Part shown: positions 26,087 to 41,781 of the stretch, piece by piece
Numbering within the stretch: the stretch's first letter is position 1
Layout of the letters: every line of letters starts with the position of its first letter
From: a virus
Taxonomy: Duplodnaviria > Caudoviricetes
Length of the DNA: 60,155 bases
Strand: one strand, 5' to 3'
Virus record (IMG/VR): IMGVR_UViG_3300025277_000021
Coordinates: 1 to 60,155 of that record
Notes under the pieces: model-generated
Seen by the model: only the letters and a program-made list of their open reading frames with translations
The model's database searches: none
Told to the model about the DNA's origin: nothing
Made by a program: the position numbers and the translations under genes

Positions 26087-26828
26087 TTGCAAAGACTGTG
26101 GGGGTACTGGCGAAGTCGTAACGGCTAAGCTGTACCCCTCCGGGCACACCGAAGTTCATGAAGAATGCGACACTTGCAACGGCGCTGGAGAGGTCTATCA
26201 AGAACCTCAAATGGGCTGCAACGTTGGTGGTCAAATTCCATGTCCTGACTGTGTAGAACCCTTCAAGCCAGGTAAGGCGTCAGGCGCACAAAACTTGGCG
26301 TATATCCTGGATGGTGAAGACGTCTTTGGGGCCAAAACGTGGGACTACCTCAAAGACCTGTCAAGCAAAACGGCGCCAGGCTTCGATGTTCATGACCTCA
26401 ACTTCCCCAACTATAGTGAGGTTGGCTTGGCTTTGAACAAGACCGACAATTCCGTCCCAACGGTATCGACAATGCTTCCATTGACTTCGTCAGTTGTGGG
26501 CAACTCCTACCGGGACGGGAACCAGCAGTCGGCTTTGCGGAATAAGAACCCGGGGAACCGAGTTCTGATTGTTCCAGAGCCTGCTAACCCGCATGATCCC
26601 TGTGCCCTGGCAGTTGTCGTGGCACGTGGATTTGGTGGAAAGTCGGGCTTTGTCTGGGTTCACGTCGGTTACGTACCGCGGGATCAAGCAAAGAAACTTG
26701 CGGCTGTCTGGCCCAAGTATCGTGGACGTCCTCTGGTCGGCGAAGGTCGATTGACTGGACATCCAGGCCGTGACAAAAACCCTGCGATTGTTGTCGAAGG
26801 GTCATTCAGGAATTATTTCCCTGATTAA
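26025..26828 (+). CDS. DnaJ-type Zn finger plus HIRAN domain (probable -1 frameshift extension of the 25399 gene)
   Basis: Frame open from 26010; CKDCGGTG and CDTCNGAG lie upstream of ATG 26211; HIRAN motif VVGNSYR...EPANPHDPCALAV...VGYVPR. Confidence 0.7.
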   Translation, partial: SEAVTPAGRSAHTSLSRPGVTCKDCGGTGEVVTAKLYPSGHTEVHEECDTCNGAGEVYQEPQMGCNVGGQIPCPDCVEPFKPGKASGAQNLAYILDGEDVFGAKTWDYLKDLSSKTAPGFDVHDLNFPNYSEVGLALNKTDNSVPTVSTMLPLTSSVVGNSYRDGNQQSALRNKNPGNRVLIVPEPANPHDPCALAVVVARGFGGKSGFVWVHVGYVPRDQAKKLAAVWPKYRGRPLVGEGRLTGHPGRDKNPAIVVEGSFRNYFPD

Positions 26829-26838
26829 ACAAGATTGG

Positions 26839-26867
26839 TGTACGCGGCACTTCCTGTCGCGTATACT
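26839..26867 (+). promoter_or_regulatory. Promoter for the structured RNA / polA
   Basis: GG-TGTACG-N17-TATACT. Confidence 0.55.
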
Positions 26868-26873
26868 GAACAA

Positions 26874-27172
26874 GCTGCCTCTCATATGGCAACTGCTACC
26901 TGGCCAGGTAGTCATGACCAGCACAAGCCTTAGGGTTCTATGTTAGACTGGTTGAGTTTCTTGAGAGGCAGCGCTTTTAGATTACCCGCCGGGCTCAGCC
27001 TCCATGCGCGCCCGGGTCAAGTAAGCAGGCTGAAAGAAGTCTGTGGGAAGGGCCGTCATAAGGTTTATGACGTCTGGCTCCGCCGGCGGGTATTCTAAGA
27101 GCGCAACCGGGTTTTCTCCCCATTTATGGCCGCGCTCTCGGGGCTAAGTGTTTGGACATGGCACTTAGCCCC
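26874..27172 (+). ncRNA. Putative structured non-coding RNA(s) or polA leader
   Basis: Three consecutive closed domains with 11-bp, 22-bp and 11-bp stems and internal hairpins; no ORF in the track. Confidence 0.5.
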
Positions 27173-27192
27173 ACTTTACTTTAGGAGGCTAC

Positions 27193-29466
27193 ATGACAGT
27201 TGACGTCATATTAGATTTCGAGACTAGGTCCGCGTGTGACCTAATGAAAGCCGGAGCCTATGCCTACTCGACGCATCCCACTACCAAAGTCATGTGCGCC
27301 TGTTGGCATTTCGCCGGCGATCCAATTGAAAAGGTTTATGCTTGGCAAGCAGGTTTCCCGCACCTCGGCATCGACCAGTCAGAGTATCCTCAAGAGCTGG
27401 CCGATCGTATTGCGGCTGGGGAAATCCTGGAAGCCCACAATGCTTTCTTTGAATTTTGTATTTGGAATAACGTTTGGCGCAAGGTCTATCCTCAGCTTCC
27501 AGAGCTTAAGCTAGCTCAAATCAGATGCTCTGCAGCCAAAGCGGCAGCGTTTGCCTTGCCACGTGCTCTTGATAAAGCCATTTCTGCTCTCGGTCTTCCT
27601 CAGAAGAAAGACCTGGAGGGCTCGGCTATCATGAAGAAGCTGGCTAAGCCTCGCAACCCAACCGCTGCAGAGAAGCGCGAGCTTAAAGCTGAGGGCAAGC
27701 GTCCAGAAGACGTTATCCTATGGCTTGAAGACAAGGACATGATCCTGCGCAATACTGTCTATTGCCAGCAAGACGTTCGGGCAGAGCACGGGCTGTCCTC
27801 AGTCCTGCGTGATTTGCCTCCCCGTGAGTTTGAGTTTTGGCAGATGGACTTGCGCATGAACCTGCGCGGGATTACCTGTGACATTGAGCTAGTACATATT
27901 GCCATTGAGCTGGCTGAGGTTGAGGCTAACCGTCTGAACGCTGAACTGCAGGAACTCACTGATGGGTTTGTGCAGAAGACTACTGGTCGAATTAAGTTCA
28001 AGCAATGGATGGAAGACAACGGGTCTAAAATTCCAAACACCCAAGGTGCGACCCTGGATATTATCCTCGGGCATGACCATGACGACAAAGAGGCGACGGC
28101 AGAGCTTAAGGCAGAGCTTCAAGGCATTGTCCTCAATGACGTTACCCGACGCGCCTGTGAGATTGTACGTGACGGCAATCGGTCGTCCTTGGCTAAGTAC
28201 AAGCAGATGCTTATTCAATTGTCAGACGGCAATCGCTTGCGGGACATGATGCTCTATTGCGGGGCGTCCAGGACCGGTCGGTGGTCAGGGAAAGGCACAC
28301 AGCCCCATAACTTTATTCGTGGGTATTCTGAAATTATGGAGGAAGTCTGCCAGGACATCCTCAAAGCTGATCCAGAGGCTTTGAAACTGCTCTATGGCGG
28401 GTCAGTCCTGGAAATTCTCTCTAAGGCTACTCGGGGCGCTTTAATTGCCTCTAAAGGCAAAAAGCTGATGGTAGCTGACTTTGCTGCCATTGAAGCGCGT
28501 GTTCTCCTCTGGCTGGCCAAAGCCACTGAAGCACTGCAAGTCTTCTATCGTGGTGAGGATATTTACCTGGATATGGCCACGTCCATCTTCGCGTACCCGT
28601 GCACCAATAAAGACGACTTTCCTTTTGAGCGTAAAGTTGGCAAGGCTGCGATCCTTGGCCTGGGCTATCAGATGGGCTGGGAGAAGTTCGAAGACGAGTG
28701 TCGCAACAAGAACGGGATCACCGACCAGGAACCTAAATTCTTCAAGGACGTTGTGCGGGTCTATCGCAAAGAGCGCTTCCCTGAAGTCTCGTCCTTCTGG
28801 TATGACCTTGAAGAGGCTGCAATCCTAGCGGTCAAGAAGTATGACCACACTAAAGGCGCCAGGGGCCCCCGGGTCGAATGCCGCAAGCTCACCTGGTTTA
28901 TGTGGGGCCAGTTCCTACATATGGAATTGCCTTCAGGGCGTTTGCTGTCCTACTTCCGGCCGTCAGTCAAAGTCCGCACGTCCATGCTGTTTCCGGCAAT
29001 CAATGAGCGGGGCTATGAGTGCTCAGTGACGGTAAACGGGCCTAAAGATATGACTGTTGCCCAGGGTCGGCGCAAAGCGGCACGTTTGGCTAAGGTAGCC
29101 AATAAGCAATTGGTGCCGAAAGCCGAACCGACGACATTTACCAATGAAACTCTGACCTTCATGCACGAGAACTCTAAGACCCGCCAGTGGGAACGGAAAG
29201 AGACCTACGGCGGAGAGCTTGTTGAGAACGCAACCCAAGCAACTGCTCGGGACTTGATGGCAGAGGCAATGCTCCGCGTCGACCAGCATCCTGATTATGA
29301 CCTGCTCCTATCAGTTCACGACGAAGAAATCGCAGAGATAGAAGACGAGAAAATCCACGAGGGCTCCGTTAAGGAGTTTGAAGCGCTGATGGAAGAACTG
29401 CCCGCTTGGGCTGAAGGCTGTCCAGTAGACGCTGAAGGCTGGATGGGCCACAGGTATAGGAAATAG
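27193..29466 (+). CDS. polA: DNA polymerase family A with 3'-5' exonuclease domain
   Basis: LDFET exo I, AHNAFFE, RTGRWSG, motif A DFAAIEAR, motif B RKVGKAAILGLGY, motif C SVHDE. Confidence 0.93.
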   Translation: MTVDVILDFETRSACDLMKAGAYAYSTHPTTKVMCACWHFAGDPIEKVYAWQAGFPHLGIDQSEYPQELADRIAAGEILEAHNAFFEFCIWNNVWRKVYPQLPELKLAQIRCSAAKAAAFALPRALDKAISALGLPQKKDLEGSAIMKKLAKPRNPTAAEKRELKAEGKRPEDVILWLEDKDMILRNTVYCQQDVRAEHGLSSVLRDLPPREFEFWQMDLRMNLRGITCDIELVHIAIELAEVEANRLNAELQELTDGFVQKTTGRIKFKQWMEDNGSKIPNTQGATLDIILGHDHDDKEATAELKAELQGIVLNDVTRRACEIVRDGNRSSLAKYKQMLIQLSDGNRLRDMMLYCGASRTGRWSGKGTQPHNFIRGYSEIMEEVCQDILKADPEALKLLYGGSVLEILSKATRGALIASKGKKLMVADFAAIEARVLLWLAKATEALQVFYRGEDIYLDMATSIFAYPCTNKDDFPFERKVGKAAILGLGYQMGWEKFEDECRNKNGITDQEPKFFKDVVRVYRKERFPEVSSFWYDLEEAAILAVKKYDHTKGARGPRVECRKLTWFMWGQFLHMELPSGRLLSYFRPSVKVRTSMLFPAINERGYECSVTVNGPKDMTVAQGRRKAARLAKVANKQLVPKAEPTTFTNETLTFMHENSKTRQWERKETYGGELVENATQATARDLMAEAMLRVDQHPDYDLLLSVHDEEIAEIEDEKIHEGSVKEFEALMEELPAWAEGCPVDAEGWMGHRYRK

Positions 29467-34144: not shown

Positions 34145-34422
34145 TTACTATGGTCTACGGCCCGCAAGCAAGCGGCAAAACCCGCAACAAAGACGCCCTG
34201 GCAAAGCACTTCGATCATATGCGGGTGCTTGACGGGGTACACCAGCCGCAACGGTCAGGCCAGTTCCGCACTGACGACGGGCGGGTGCATACTCAGGTGC
34301 CCACCGACGCACTTCTGCTCACAACCATGAGCCGCGAGGAGTGTGTCAAGTTCATGGCCAAGCATGAGGTCACCGGAGCTTTGGTGCCGATCCACGAAGC
34401 CCTTTTGGAGATTAAGAAATGA
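34141..34422 (+). CDS. Small P-loop protein
   Basis: VYGPQASGKT Walker A in a 93-aa ORF. Confidence 0.6.
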   Translation: MITMVYGPQASGKTRNKDALAKHFDHMRVLDGVHQPQRSGQFRTDDGRVHTQVPTDALLLTTMSREECVKFMAKHEVTGALVPIHEALLEIKK

Positions 34423-35309
34423 AGAGCCAACCTTTTCAACAGGTCTATCGCGACCTACTAAGCGAAATCATGGACAATGGCGTCGATGAGAAAAACGCCC
34501 GTACCAATGTGCAGATCAAGATGCTGCAGGGCGGGCATTCGTTCAAGCTGGACCTCACTGACGGTAAGCTGCCTATTGCGGGCAACCGGCGCTACTTTCC
34601 ACAAGTGGCGGCGGCTGAAACGGCTTGGCAGTTCATGGGCACTAAAGACCCGGAGTTTATTGTCGGGAAGGCACCTAAACTCTGGTCGAAGTTCGTCGAG
34701 GACGGGGAGCTTAAAACCGCCTATGGCTATCGCTGGCGCAAAGAGTTTGGCCGGGATCAATTGGCCTTGGCTTGTAAAGAGTTGAAGGACAATCCGACCA
34801 ACAGACAGTTGTTTGTCTCTGCATGGGACCCACGGCATGACGGCCTTGGCGGAGAGCAGCCGAAGAATATCCCGTGCCCTGTCGGCTTCACGGTATCCCG
34901 TTATAACCATGACCTGCACATGAGCGTGTTCATTCGTTCCAGTGACGTGTTTGTCGGGCTTCCTTATGACGTCATGGCCTATGCTTTGACGGCAGATGCA
35001 ATCGCAGCCACCGTGGGCCTCCGTCCTGCTTCACTGCACGTCACACTGGCGCATCCTCACTTGTACAAGCCGCATTGGAATGCAACTCGGGCTTGCCTCA
35101 CTGGTGACTGGGACAGCTCTGAATGGCGCGAGCAGAAAGAGTTTGCTGATGTTGCCACTACTTGGCCGACTGATGTGTCGCCCAATCTGCCTGGCTGGGG
35201 CATCGGCATGATTGAAGGCCATCCTGACGCCTATATTGATGTCGTCAAGCAGTTGACCCGCCGCACGTCGCAGAACCCTTGGAACCCACTTCCTGAAGTT
35301 ATTGAATGA
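34419..35309 (+). CDS. Thymidylate-synthase-family enzyme, predicted dCMP-specific (5-methyl- or 5-hydroxymethyl-dCMP synthase)
   Basis: YGYRWR, DQL, SAW, catalytic IPC, RSSDVFVGLPYD (Asp where ThyA has Asn), HLY. Confidence 0.8.
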   Translation: MKSQPFQQVYRDLLSEIMDNGVDEKNARTNVQIKMLQGGHSFKLDLTDGKLPIAGNRRYFPQVAAAETAWQFMGTKDPEFIVGKAPKLWSKFVEDGELKTAYGYRWRKEFGRDQLALACKELKDNPTNRQLFVSAWDPRHDGLGGEQPKNIPCPVGFTVSRYNHDLHMSVFIRSSDVFVGLPYDVMAYALTADAIAATVGLRPASLHVTLAHPHLYKPHWNATRACLTGDWDSSEWREQKEFADVATTWPTDVSPNLPGWGIGMIEGHPDAYIDVVKQLTRRTSQNPWNPLPEVIE

Positions 35310-39444: not shown

Positions 39445-39471
39445 GAGCATCTCCATAATATGAGGAAACCC

Positions 39472-41781
39472 ATGGAACACCCTGCTATTGCAACCCAAAT
39501 TTGGGATAAGAAATACCGTTTCAAAGATGCGAAAGGCGAGCCCATTGATACTACTGTCCATGACACTTGGGCCCGTATTGCTCAAGCTCTGGCGGAAGCC
39601 GAAAGCGACGACCCGGAAGTAGTGGCTGAGTACTTCTCCCAGTTCTACTTCGCTCTTGATGAATACCAGCTCTTGCCTGCTGGCCGCATCACCGCTGGTG
39701 CCGGCACCGGTCGTCAGGTTACCCTATTCAATTGTTATGTCATGGGCACGATCCCAGACAGCATGGACGGCATCTTCTCAATGCTCCGTGAAGCCGCTCT
39801 GACAATGCAGCAAGGCGGTGGCATTGGTTACGACTTCTCAACCATTCGTCCTTCTGGTGCGACTGTCAAAGGTGTGGCAGCAGACGCCTCTGGACCGCTT
39901 TCCTTTATGGACGTTTGGGATCGCATGTGCCGCACCATCATGTCGGCAGGTGAACGGCGCGGTGCAATGATGGCAACCATGCGCTGTGATCATCCTGATA
40001 TTGAGGAGTTCATTGAAGCTAAGCGTGAAGCTGGACGCCTTCGCATGTTCAACCTCTCAGTGCTTGTTACTGATGCGTTCATGAAGGCAGTCGAGCGCAA
40101 TGATGACTGGCAACTGTGGCACAAATCTGAACCAAGCTCAGGGCTGCCAGGACACGCTGATTACGGCGATGGGTTTGTTTATAAAACCATTCCAGCACGT
40201 GAGCTTTGGAATAAGATCATCCAAGCAACCTATGACGTGGCCGAGCCAGGGGTTATCTTCATTGACCGCATCAACCAGCTGAACAACTTGGGGTACTGCG
40301 AGACCATTGCTGCCACAAACCCATGCGGGGAACAGCCGTTGCCGCCGTATGGGGCTTGCCTCCTGGGTTCGATCAATTTGTCCCGCCTTATCAGTGCCGC
40401 CTTTACCGCACAGGCTAGCTTGGACCTCGACCAGCTCGACCAGCTAGTTGCAACTGCGGTGCGGATGATGGATAACGTGGTCGACGTTTCTCTGTTCCCA
40501 GTCGCACAACAAGAAATTGAGGCCAAGGACAAGCGCCGTATCGGCCTCGGTGTAACAGGACTTGCAGACGCTCTGGCGATGTGCCGTGTGAAGTACGGAA
40601 CCGACGAGGCGGCTGAGCTAGTTGAGGAATGGATGGAAGCAATTGCTCTGTCAGCCTATTCCGCCTCAATTGAACTGGCCAAAGAGAAAGGGCCTTTCCC
40701 TAAGTTCGACGCTGACGGCTTCCTGCGTGAGGGCTCTTTTGCTGATCTGCGTTTGCCGCTGGAAATGAAGAATGACATTCGCAAGCATGGCATTCGGAAC
40801 GCCCTCCTTACTTCGATTGCGCCAACCGGGACAATCAGTCTCTACGCCGGCAACGTCTCCTCGGGCATTGAGCCTATCTTTGCCTATGGTTACACACGCA
40901 CCATCCTTAACGGCGACGGGTCTAAGCGTCAGGAAGAAGTAGTGGACTATGCGGTTGCCCTTCATCAGGAAATGCACCCTGGCGAAGAACGCCCAGACTA
41001 CTTCACCACGGCTCAGCACCTCACACCAGCCGAGCATTTGAAGATGCAAGCGGCTGCGCAGAAGTGGGTCGATAGCTCCATCTCTAAGACGATCAACGTT
41101 CCGGCTGACATTTCCTTTGAAAGCTTCCGCAACGTTTATGAGGAAGCCTATAAGCAGGGTTGCAAGGGCTGTACAACGTACCGTCCAAATGACATTACTG
41201 GGTCTGTCTTGGAAGTGAAGACTGACAAGCCAAAGTCCAAGTCGTCCAGTGAAAAGCCAGCCGATCGGCCTCGTCGTTTGGAAGGGGCAACCTACAAGCT
41301 GAAATGGCCAAACGAGCCTCATGCCTTCTATCTGACCTTCACCGATCAGATTGATGATGCTGGTGGTCGTCGTCCGTTTGAGGTGTTTATCAACTCCAAA
41401 AACGTGGATCACTATCAGTGGATGGTTGCTCTTACTCGCATGGTCTCTGCAGTGTTCCGTCGCGGTGGCAATGTGTCCTTTGTGGCTGACGAGCTTCGTG
41501 AGGTCTTTGATCCTAAGGGCGGCGCCTGGATGAGCGGAAAGTATGTTCCGTCTTTGCTTGCAGCCATGGGCAATATTGTCGCAGACCATATGACCCAAAT
41601 TGGCTATGGCGACTTCAAGGGGGCTCTCACCGACCAGGAACCTGCGGGCGATATTGAAGTCGAGAAGACTGAACCTGTAGTCCTTGGTGCCAGCACTTGT
41701 AAAGACTGCGGAAGCTGGAATACTGAGCACCAAGGCGGGTGTGAAGTATGTAAAGACTGCGGCTCTAGCAAGTGCGGCTAA
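39472..41781 (+). CDS. nrdJ: Class II (B12-dependent) ribonucleotide reductase
   Basis: LFNCYV, TNPCGEQPL, CLLGSINL, IAPTGT, DSSISKT, KGCTTYR, C-terminal CxxC..CxxC; no beta-subunit gene. Confidence 0.9.
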   Translation: MEHPAIATQIWDKKYRFKDAKGEPIDTTVHDTWARIAQALAEAESDDPEVVAEYFSQFYFALDEYQLLPAGRITAGAGTGRQVTLFNCYVMGTIPDSMDGIFSMLREAALTMQQGGGIGYDFSTIRPSGATVKGVAADASGPLSFMDVWDRMCRTIMSAGERRGAMMATMRCDHPDIEEFIEAKREAGRLRMFNLSVLVTDAFMKAVERNDDWQLWHKSEPSSGLPGHADYGDGFVYKTIPARELWNKIIQATYDVAEPGVIFIDRINQLNNLGYCETIAATNPCGEQPLPPYGACLLGSINLSRLISAAFTAQASLDLDQLDQLVATAVRMMDNVVDVSLFPVAQQEIEAKDKRRIGLGVTGLADALAMCRVKYGTDEAAELVEEWMEAIALSAYSASIELAKEKGPFPKFDADGFLREGSFADLRLPLEMKNDIRKHGIRNALLTSIAPTGTISLYAGNVSSGIEPIFAYGYTRTILNGDGSKRQEEVVDYAVALHQEMHPGEERPDYFTTAQHLTPAEHLKMQAAAQKWVDSSISKTINVPADISFESFRNVYEEAYKQGCKGCTTYRPNDITGSVLEVKTDKPKSKSSSEKPADRPRRLEGATYKLKWPNEPHAFYLTFTDQIDDAGGRRPFEVFINSKNVDHYQWMVALTRMVSAVFRRGGNVSFVADELREVFDPKGGAWMSGKYVPSLLAAMGNIVADHMTQIGYGDFKGALTDQEPAGDIEVEKTEPVVLGASTCKDCGSWNTEHQGGCEVCKDCGSSKCG

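Follow-up and report, generated by a model that had tools for sequence, protein, structure and literature searches.

A conserved three-way-junction RNA motif before a phage DNA polymerase gene and in the spacer of permuted phage tmRNA genes

The window analysed here comes from a marine phage and corresponds to a near-complete virus record in IMG/VR (60,155 bp), in which a HIRAN-domain gene and a family-A DNA polymerase gene, both on the + strand, are separated by a gap of 364 nt (26829-27192). The surrounding replication and nucleotide-metabolism module holds exonucleases, a ligase, a Cas4-like exonuclease, an Enc34-type ssDNA-binding protein, a helicase and a primase, along with thymidylate synthase and ribonucleotide reductase; 14 open reading frames were scanned, most of them from the 30 of at least 250 amino acids, and the named matches were replication or nucleotide-metabolism genes. 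The thymidylate synthase gene (34419-35309) and the ribonucleotide reductase, whose large subunit is the open reading frame at 39460-41781 (PHROG 84, E 2.6e-191), give this phage a sizeable nucleotide-metabolism block. The gap is a composite of five structures, namely hairpin 0, domain 1, a three-way-junction core, an alternative helix (P5) and a terminator-like hairpin (hairpin 3), which are listed here with their flanking genes and the basis of each call.

26211-26828, + strand: HIRAN-domain gene (Pfam HIRAN, E 2.7e-11), a marker of the conserved genomic slot
26837-26867, + strand: hairpin 0, a 13-bp stem with a 6-nt loop and with two promoter-like hexamers in opposite arms (covariation)
26874-26972, + strand: domain 1, a branched fold with an 11-bp closing stem (fold; lineage-specific insertion)
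26969-27104, + strand: core, a three-way junction of 136 nt (covariation; 153.2 bits with covariance model R1)
26971-26992/27083-27104, + strand: P1, 22 bp with one G-U pair and one U-U mismatch (pairing)
26997-27000/27076-27079, + strand: P2, 4 bp, AGCC/GGCU (kept in relatives)
27001-27008, + strand: junction UCCAUGCG, holding the invariant CCA (sequence)
27010-27013/27050-27053, + strand: P3, GCCC/GGGC, enclosing GGGUCAAG..GGGAA (core model)
27026-27031/27038-27043, + strand: P3a, an optional hairpin, CAGGCT/AGTCTG (kept in relatives)
27054-27061/27065-27072, + strand: P4, CGTCATAA/TTATGACG, stacked on P3 (pairing)
27098-27138, + strand: P5, AGAGCGC at 27098-27104 with GCGCUCU at 27132-27138, around a small variable hairpin (covariation)
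27140-27182, + strand: hairpin 3, 12-13 bp with a U-rich tail (terminator-like call; covariation)
27183-27195, + strand: AGGAGG ribosome-binding site and ATG of the polymerase gene (sequence)
27193-29466, + strand: family-A DNA polymerase gene (Pfam DNA_pol_A)

The + strand of the gap folds at -159.1 kcal/mol, compared with -127.9 +/- 5.7 kcal/mol for 100 shuffles (z -5.47, 0/100 equal), and the - strand gives z -4.24. Among paired cells of the alignments G-U outnumbers A-C by 29:9 in the core and by 18:1 downstream (47:10 combined), and the + strand is therefore taken to be the folded one. An earlier note, made from the letters of this DNA, had read its G-U pairs as a sign of selection on RNA structure, and the same ratio bears it out for the + strand; the elements that it described all lie where it placed them. 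A conserved small protein at this locus would have spoken against its reading. No open reading frame in the gap is conserved in RDJL3, L005 or L007; the 52-amino-acid frame at 26940-27098, for example, has no counterpart in any of the three.

Among the phages of GenBank the sole relative found was Roseobacter phage RDJL3, which is 77.9% identical across 99% of a 701-nt query. Aligned to RDJL3, the gap has a mean column identity of 88%, its differences fall in compensating pairs, and it is conserved better than the flanking coding sequence. Ten viral contigs were fetched in addition by a polymerase protein search, and in 6 of the 10 (L003-L007 and L012), as in RDJL3 and L215, the element sits directly before the polymerase gene while the upstream gene varies. 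It is absent from L008-L010, distant polymerase relatives in which the upstream region is covered, and L011 starts inside the polymerase gene.

The fold of the core is maintained by compensatory change. Across 8 sequences its 43 pairs are paired in 92.3% of cells, and 21 pairs have changed on both sides, a count that 0 of 500 shuffles equalled; when the partners were slid by 1-3 columns only 33.5-43.6% of cells remained paired. The long outer stem that the earlier note had drawn, 22 bp with one G-U pair and one mismatch, is present as P1 of this covarying core, and in homologous gaps nearly all of the helices it proposed are kept by compensatory changes. One that did not survive is a CAGCCT/AGGCTG arm, in place of which relatives keep AGCC/GGCT and CAGGCT/AGTCTG. 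P3 encloses an internal loop in which GGGUC faces GGGAA.

Domain 1, by contrast with the helices shared across the clade, is confined to the window and RDJL3. Its closing arms (26874-26884 with 26962-26972) enclose a fold of -41.6 kcal/mol (z -2.46), and its inner hairpin differs between the two phages by compensatory changes. It is absent in L004-L007 and L012, L003 has unrelated sequence at the site, and an exact 23-nt domain 1 pattern found no match in the viral contig collection.

At the 5' end of the gap the earlier note had seen a promoter, and the hexamers that it named are present (TGTACG at 26839-26844, a 17-nt spacer, TATACT at 26862-26867). They lie, however, inside hairpin 0, which begins 9 nt after the upstream stop codon and is itself a covarying structure: in 7 relatives 98.9% of its cells are paired, 6 of its 13 pairs have changed on both sides, one G-U pair is invariant and further G-U pairs occur. 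A consensus promoter scan made no call at the hexamers in the window and did call L005 there (TTTACG-18-TATACT, 9/12). Related phages have a promoter-like site or an A/T-rich stretch ending 6-8 nt before the first stem. A phage RNA polymerase or an N4-type hairpin promoter was considered and set aside, as no open reading frame of RNA-polymerase size is present and none of the frames scanned encodes a phage RNA polymerase. With the promoter-like hexamers placed in a hairpin and domain 1 limited to two phages, the single promoter-driven RNA of three domains that the earlier note described gives way to the composite listed above. In L003 (2660-2750) another hairpin with a T-run replaces hairpin 0 and an A/T-rich stretch ends 8 nt before P1, an arrangement whose sequence suggests a separate transcription unit starting at the core. 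In RcSimone-Hastad (L270 3955-3990) a 12-bp hairpin of different sequence follows directly on the HIRAN stop codon, at the position of hairpin 0.

Contigs from RNA libraries of a related strain cover 26300-26946 and 26789-26987, leave the core uncovered, and carry no information on ends, strand or level. The libraries are two metatranscriptome runs of one study, of a kind in which DNA may be present; neither run has cover over 26990-27540, which is uninformative either way. The longer contig (1,560 nt) begins before 26300, crosses both the HIRAN gene and hairpin 0 and reaches 26946, a hint, from a contig without strand or level information, that hairpin 0 is transcribed from upstream. Such transcription would fit the G-U pairs of hairpin 0 and weakens the promoter reading.

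Downstream of the core the 5' arm of P5 is the 3' strand of the base of P1. In 9 sequences the 7 pairs of P5 are paired in 92.1% of cells and 3 have changed on both sides. Since the two helices share this strand and both covary, the outer 7 bp of P1 and P5 are mutually exclusive and both maintained. The minimum-energy fold of the whole gap uses P5, and in it the freed 5' strand of P1 pairs with the GGAGG region. Hairpin 3 follows (stem-loop 27140-27172, then ACTTTACTTT, AGGAGG and the ATG at 27193). Its 12 aligned pairs are 99% paired in 9 sequences, with 7 changed on both sides, and for P5 and hairpin 3 jointly the figures are 96.3% and 10 of 19. Hairpin 3 has the form of an intrinsic terminator, with 13 pairs of which 7 are G-C and with ACTTTACTTT as its tail; the tail is U-rich in relatives also, and its end lies 1 nt before the ribosome-binding site. 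The loop (27153-27161, UGGAC(A/G)UGG) is nearly invariant in the window and its relatives, on a stem that covaries. A tertiary pairing of this loop with the CCAU junction or the GGGUC loop was considered and rejected, as the 3-5 bp were matched by eye and do not covary.

Outside the window's clade the core was followed with R1, a covariance model of the core run on contigs fetched by short pattern scans. R1 gave 46 matches in 39 sources, viral and metagenome contigs, of which 35 distinct rows remained once 7 echoes of strong members on the opposite strand, 3 duplicates and 1 truncated row had been removed. All 10 of the metagenome contigs fetched by a 23-base pattern match R1, and from a first loose pattern scan, whose at least 118 stretches were mostly chance, R1 retained L071, L033 and L110. 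The family is wide, and it lies on viral contigs. Over the 35 members the inner part of P1, P2, P3a and P4 vary with compensation, and CCA, GCCC/GGGC, GGGUC and GGGAA show almost no variation. Members of a GC-rich clade (58-73% G+C) have no hairpin 3; in them the motif precedes, by a few to roughly 30 nt, the strong ribosome-binding site of unrelated small open reading frames. Rfam tRNAs lie 7 nt upstream of the motif in L226, 8 nt downstream in L219 and 91 nt upstream in L229; in L267 a tRNA-like 3' end can be read by eye 4 nt before it. No gene co-occurs with the motif across all clades.

A pattern scan of genome contigs, limited to a 37-nt gap that excludes long forms of the motif, yielded 27 loci at which R1 agreed with the pattern site only in L190, rejected as a long inverted repeat that by eye has no CCA junction. 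Of 401 alphaproteobacterial genomes, the unpublished genome G192 among them, 2 gave a hit to the motif pattern; one of the two is G001, in which R1 found no match. R1 had 0 matches in 151 genomes of one alphaproteobacterial order, a weak test in which 20 candidates were scored per genome, and a BLAST search of GenBank phages and plasmids with a distant member found no match.

The motif also occurs within permuted tmRNA genes. All five viral or phage tmRNA genes met here with ARAGORN and Rfam are permuted and carry it: three on contigs (L167, L208 and L211) and two in the Rhodobacter phages RcSimone-Hastad (L270) and RcRudolph (L271), which were reached by BLAST of L208 against GenBank phages. 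In the three contigs about 1 nt separates the CCA of the acceptor piece from the start of the motif, and 5 nt lie between the motif and the G run that opens the coding piece; relative to the Rfam models RF01849 (alpha_tmRNA) and RF04321 (tmRNA_permuted) the motif is an insertion in the spacer loop between the CCA and the 5' G run. R1 scores these spacers at 31.5-43.1 bits (RcSimone-Hastad 33.6, RcRudolph 31.5). ARAGORN assigns the tag ANDNVRMDAQALAA to the permuted tmRNA of both Rhodobacter phages, with the motif as spacer. The permuted alpha-type tmRNA gene is unannotated in the RcSimone-Hastad record (MW677525.1; L270 3965-4378), and in that of RcRudolph (OP009285.1; L271 3968-4382) a 'hypothetical protein' coding sequence overlaps it. 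According to one published account, transcripts of permuted tmRNA genes are cut by tRNA-processing enzymes and the intervening sequence can hold a tRNA gene (PMC11915505). Chromosomal tmRNA genes differ: RF01849 is found in 60 of 61 Alphaproteobacteria (G192 again in the sample), and of 30 chromosomal tmRNA loci fetched from these genomes 0 match R1, which speaks for a phage-specific motif.

Both Rhodobacter phages are annotated with a Cas4 exonuclease, two hypothetical proteins, HIRAN, directly after it the RNA gene and later a DNA polymerase, and the order that they have in common with the window is Cas4 exonuclease, SSB-like protein, HIRAN, the RNA and, further downstream, DNA polymerase. 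This shared order indicates that the slot in the window is the slot of the phage tmRNA gene, with the motif present there and the tRNA-like and tag parts missing. ARAGORN finds 0 tmRNA genes in the window, Rfam gives no tmRNA match at E<=10 over 26300-27700, and ARAGORN reports no tag-peptide reading frame; the same tools detect tmRNA in L167, L208, L211, L270 and L271. RcSimone-Hastad and RcRudolph also have a hairpin with a T-run immediately ahead of the polymerase start, some 2-4 kb away from the motif, and that of RcSimone-Hastad was called terminator-like by the scan. A hairpin before the polymerase gene with the motif kilobases away implies that hairpin 3 is a feature of the polymerase gene and not a part of the motif.

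The core matches no Rfam family. Rfam 15 at E<=10 gives three weak matches over 26300-27700, none inside the gap, and at E<=1 only tRNAs at 8 distant member loci; the known ribozyme models of Rfam do not match. The novelty that the earlier note had put to an Rfam search therefore holds against that database, as does its observation that there is no tRNA T-loop, since neither ARAGORN, which reports no tRNA or tmRNA in the window, nor Rfam finds a cloverleaf. Likenesses to K-turns, T-loops, SRP-like folds and CsrA sites were considered and not retained. No description of the motif was found in literature on roseophages, phage permuted tmRNA and candidate structured RNAs. One survey of IMG/VR intergenic regions reports 8,495 unnamed structured-RNA candidates of 29-151 nt; it was mined from the collection that holds the window and its main text names no such motif, so that the motif may be catalogued already, without a function, in its supplementary list (PMC10690425). 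On the reading favoured below, the 136-nt core is the functional centre of the gap and belongs to a so far undescribed RNA family from phages of Alphaproteobacteria.

Phage T4 makes two small stable RNAs, species 1 and 2, that are encoded among its tRNA genes, and GOLLD and ROOL are large tRNA-associated phage RNAs. The present motif is likewise phage-borne, has tRNA neighbours and a presumed release by tRNA-processing enzymes, and those RNAs were long without a known function. There is no relation of sequence or structure to them (no Rfam match at E<=10 in the window), and the motif is far smaller than GOLLD or ROOL.

There is reason to think that the core is a portable, self-contained phage RNA module that is freed from longer transcripts and in the window is coupled to a terminator next to the polymerase gene, and the probability of this reading is put at roughly 0.45. 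The portability of the module is observed: it occurs as a tmRNA spacer, in the neighbourhood of tRNAs, or upstream of unrelated small open reading frames, and this range of contexts fits a portable module better than a polymerase-specific sensor. The gap would be transcribed on the + strand into an RNA holding five separate structures, and the module, made within a longer transcript, would be cut out by host RNases acting beside P1; in the tmRNA and tRNA contexts the cutters may be the tRNA-processing enzymes. The product, an RNA of about 135 nt whose ends are paired, would resist nucleases, and by analogy with permuted tmRNA precursors the motif is probably released as a stable RNA of this kind. 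The invariant CCA, GGGUC and GGGAA could together offer a surface to which a protein or an RNA binds, and the invariant junction implies a specific partner. In the window's clade the module has come to lie immediately ahead of the terminator-like hairpin that belongs to the polymerase gene, and the competition of P5 with the base of P1 links the two, so that folding or release is probably coupled to read-through into, or translation of, the polymerase gene. The earlier note had proposed small RNAs released by processing. That proposal draws indirect support from the motif as intervening segment of tmRNA and as neighbour of tRNA, while in the window itself release would follow only by analogy.

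The principal competitor, possible but doubtful, is a cis-acting leader of the polymerase mRNA, in which the junction senses a small ligand, a protein or RNA polymerase itself, and the balance of P1 and P5 governs how far hairpin 3 terminates transcription or how accessible the ribosome-binding site is, in the manner of a riboswitch or of put/EAR antitermination. HK022 put and EAR are processive antiterminator RNAs. Mutually exclusive covarying helices upstream of a terminator-like hairpin and a ribosome-binding site are the classic layout of a cis attenuator or riboswitch, and this is a point against the free module; the hairpin, with its stem and position kept in 9 clade members, is one that polymerase expression must pass. 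The predicted pairing of the freed P1 strand with the ribosome-binding site would count for a leader; its dependence on U-G pairs counts against one. The promoter-like or A/T-rich sites just before the first stem in relatives also favour a leader, and the many distant members in which a strong ribosome-binding site follows the motif within a few to some 30 nt suggest cis control and again weigh against a free module. Unlike known leaders, which it resembles in having a junction domain, a closing stem opposed to a downstream helix, a terminator-like hairpin and a ribosome-binding site, the motif matches no known class, its alternative helix lies off the terminator, and what follows it is inconsistent: polymerase, unrelated small open reading frames, tRNAs or the coding piece of a tmRNA. 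Formation of P5 costs P1 only 7 of its 22 bp and leaves the terminator stem untouched, in the five tmRNA genes the motif is discarded as spacer and has no gene to act on, and in RcSimone-like phages the polymerase-proximal hairpin exists with no motif nearby. The autoregulatory leader specific to polA that the earlier note had offered is a poor fit, because beyond the closest clade no polymerase gene adjoins the motif; an attenuator role may still apply within the window's clade, where the alternative helix is conserved.

A translational operator is found in the mRNA of the phage T4 DNA polymerase (gp43), and the hairpin with a conserved loop right before the polymerase ribosome-binding site resembles it; RcSimone-like phages have a hairpin at the same position. 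Here the hairpin is long and GC-rich and is followed by a U-rich tract, as in a terminator.

A new class of phage 'hitch-hiker' RNA is unlikely. It would sit directly beside tRNA-like ends or in the tmRNA spacer, be released as a stable RNA of about 135 nt by host tRNA-processing or by self-cleavage, and act in trans on host tRNA or tmRNA metabolism or on defence.

RNase III sites separate the early genes of phage T7, and the stems in the gap might similarly be sites of cleavage or protection by RNase III, E or P that part the upstream and polymerase messages, the excised piece itself having no function. The spacing of the motif in other settings (1 nt after the tmRNA CCA, 5 nt before the 5' G run, 4-9 nt from tRNA ends) agrees with this, as do the 22 bp of P1 in the window and the position of hairpin 0 so close behind the upstream stop codon. 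Plain helices would do for such a purpose, however, yet CCA, GGGUC and GGGAA are almost invariant in 35 members whose stems have freely diverged, and chromosomal tmRNA genes manage without the motif (0/30), so that a processing or stability cassette is judged rather improbable.

Two further readings are very improbable. An element acting at the DNA level, as structures in single-stranded DNA or as a transcript that primes an origin beside the replication genes, would suit the location in a replication module (exonucleases, ligase, SSB-like protein, HIRAN, polymerase, helicase, primase), and folded single-stranded DNA also tolerates G-T pairs, but the motif lies within tmRNA genes or beside tRNA genes always in their orientation, which points to RNA. 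A decaying, functionless remnant of a phage tmRNA gene whose tRNA-like and tag parts have gone would fit the slot shared with RcSimone-Hastad and RcRudolph, and hairpin 3 bears by eye, in its 5' strand and loop, a loose resemblance to the 5' end of a tmRNA coding piece, but neither the tmRNA models nor ARAGORN find anything in the window, and a remnant would hardly be better conserved than the flanking coding sequence or maintained by compensatory change in every helix across up to 9 diverged clade members.

Few phage structured RNAs have a comparative case as strong as that for this core, and fewer can be tested in cultured systems. Isolated phages carry the motif, and their hosts are tractable: RDJL3 infects Roseobacter denitrificans, and both RcSimone-Hastad and RcRudolph infect Rhodobacter capsulatus. 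One module in three settings, as a polymerase leader, as a neighbour of tRNA genes and as the discarded spacer of a tmRNA, offers a handle on the orphan small RNAs of phage tRNA regions and on why some phages carry tmRNA genes, and it shows that a separate, conserved structured RNA can reside in the 'spacer' of a permuted tmRNA gene.

Long open reading frames overlap the motif in GC-rich members, and 6 of 6 are without a Pfam or PHROG match. In L110 and L220 the profile of GC by codon position is flat from about -700 to +100 around the motif, and on these two grounds the frames are read as non-coding. The approximately 700 nt upstream of the motif in L110 and L220 may be a larger non-coding RNA region, and several GC-rich members have conserved hairpins in this upstream stretch.
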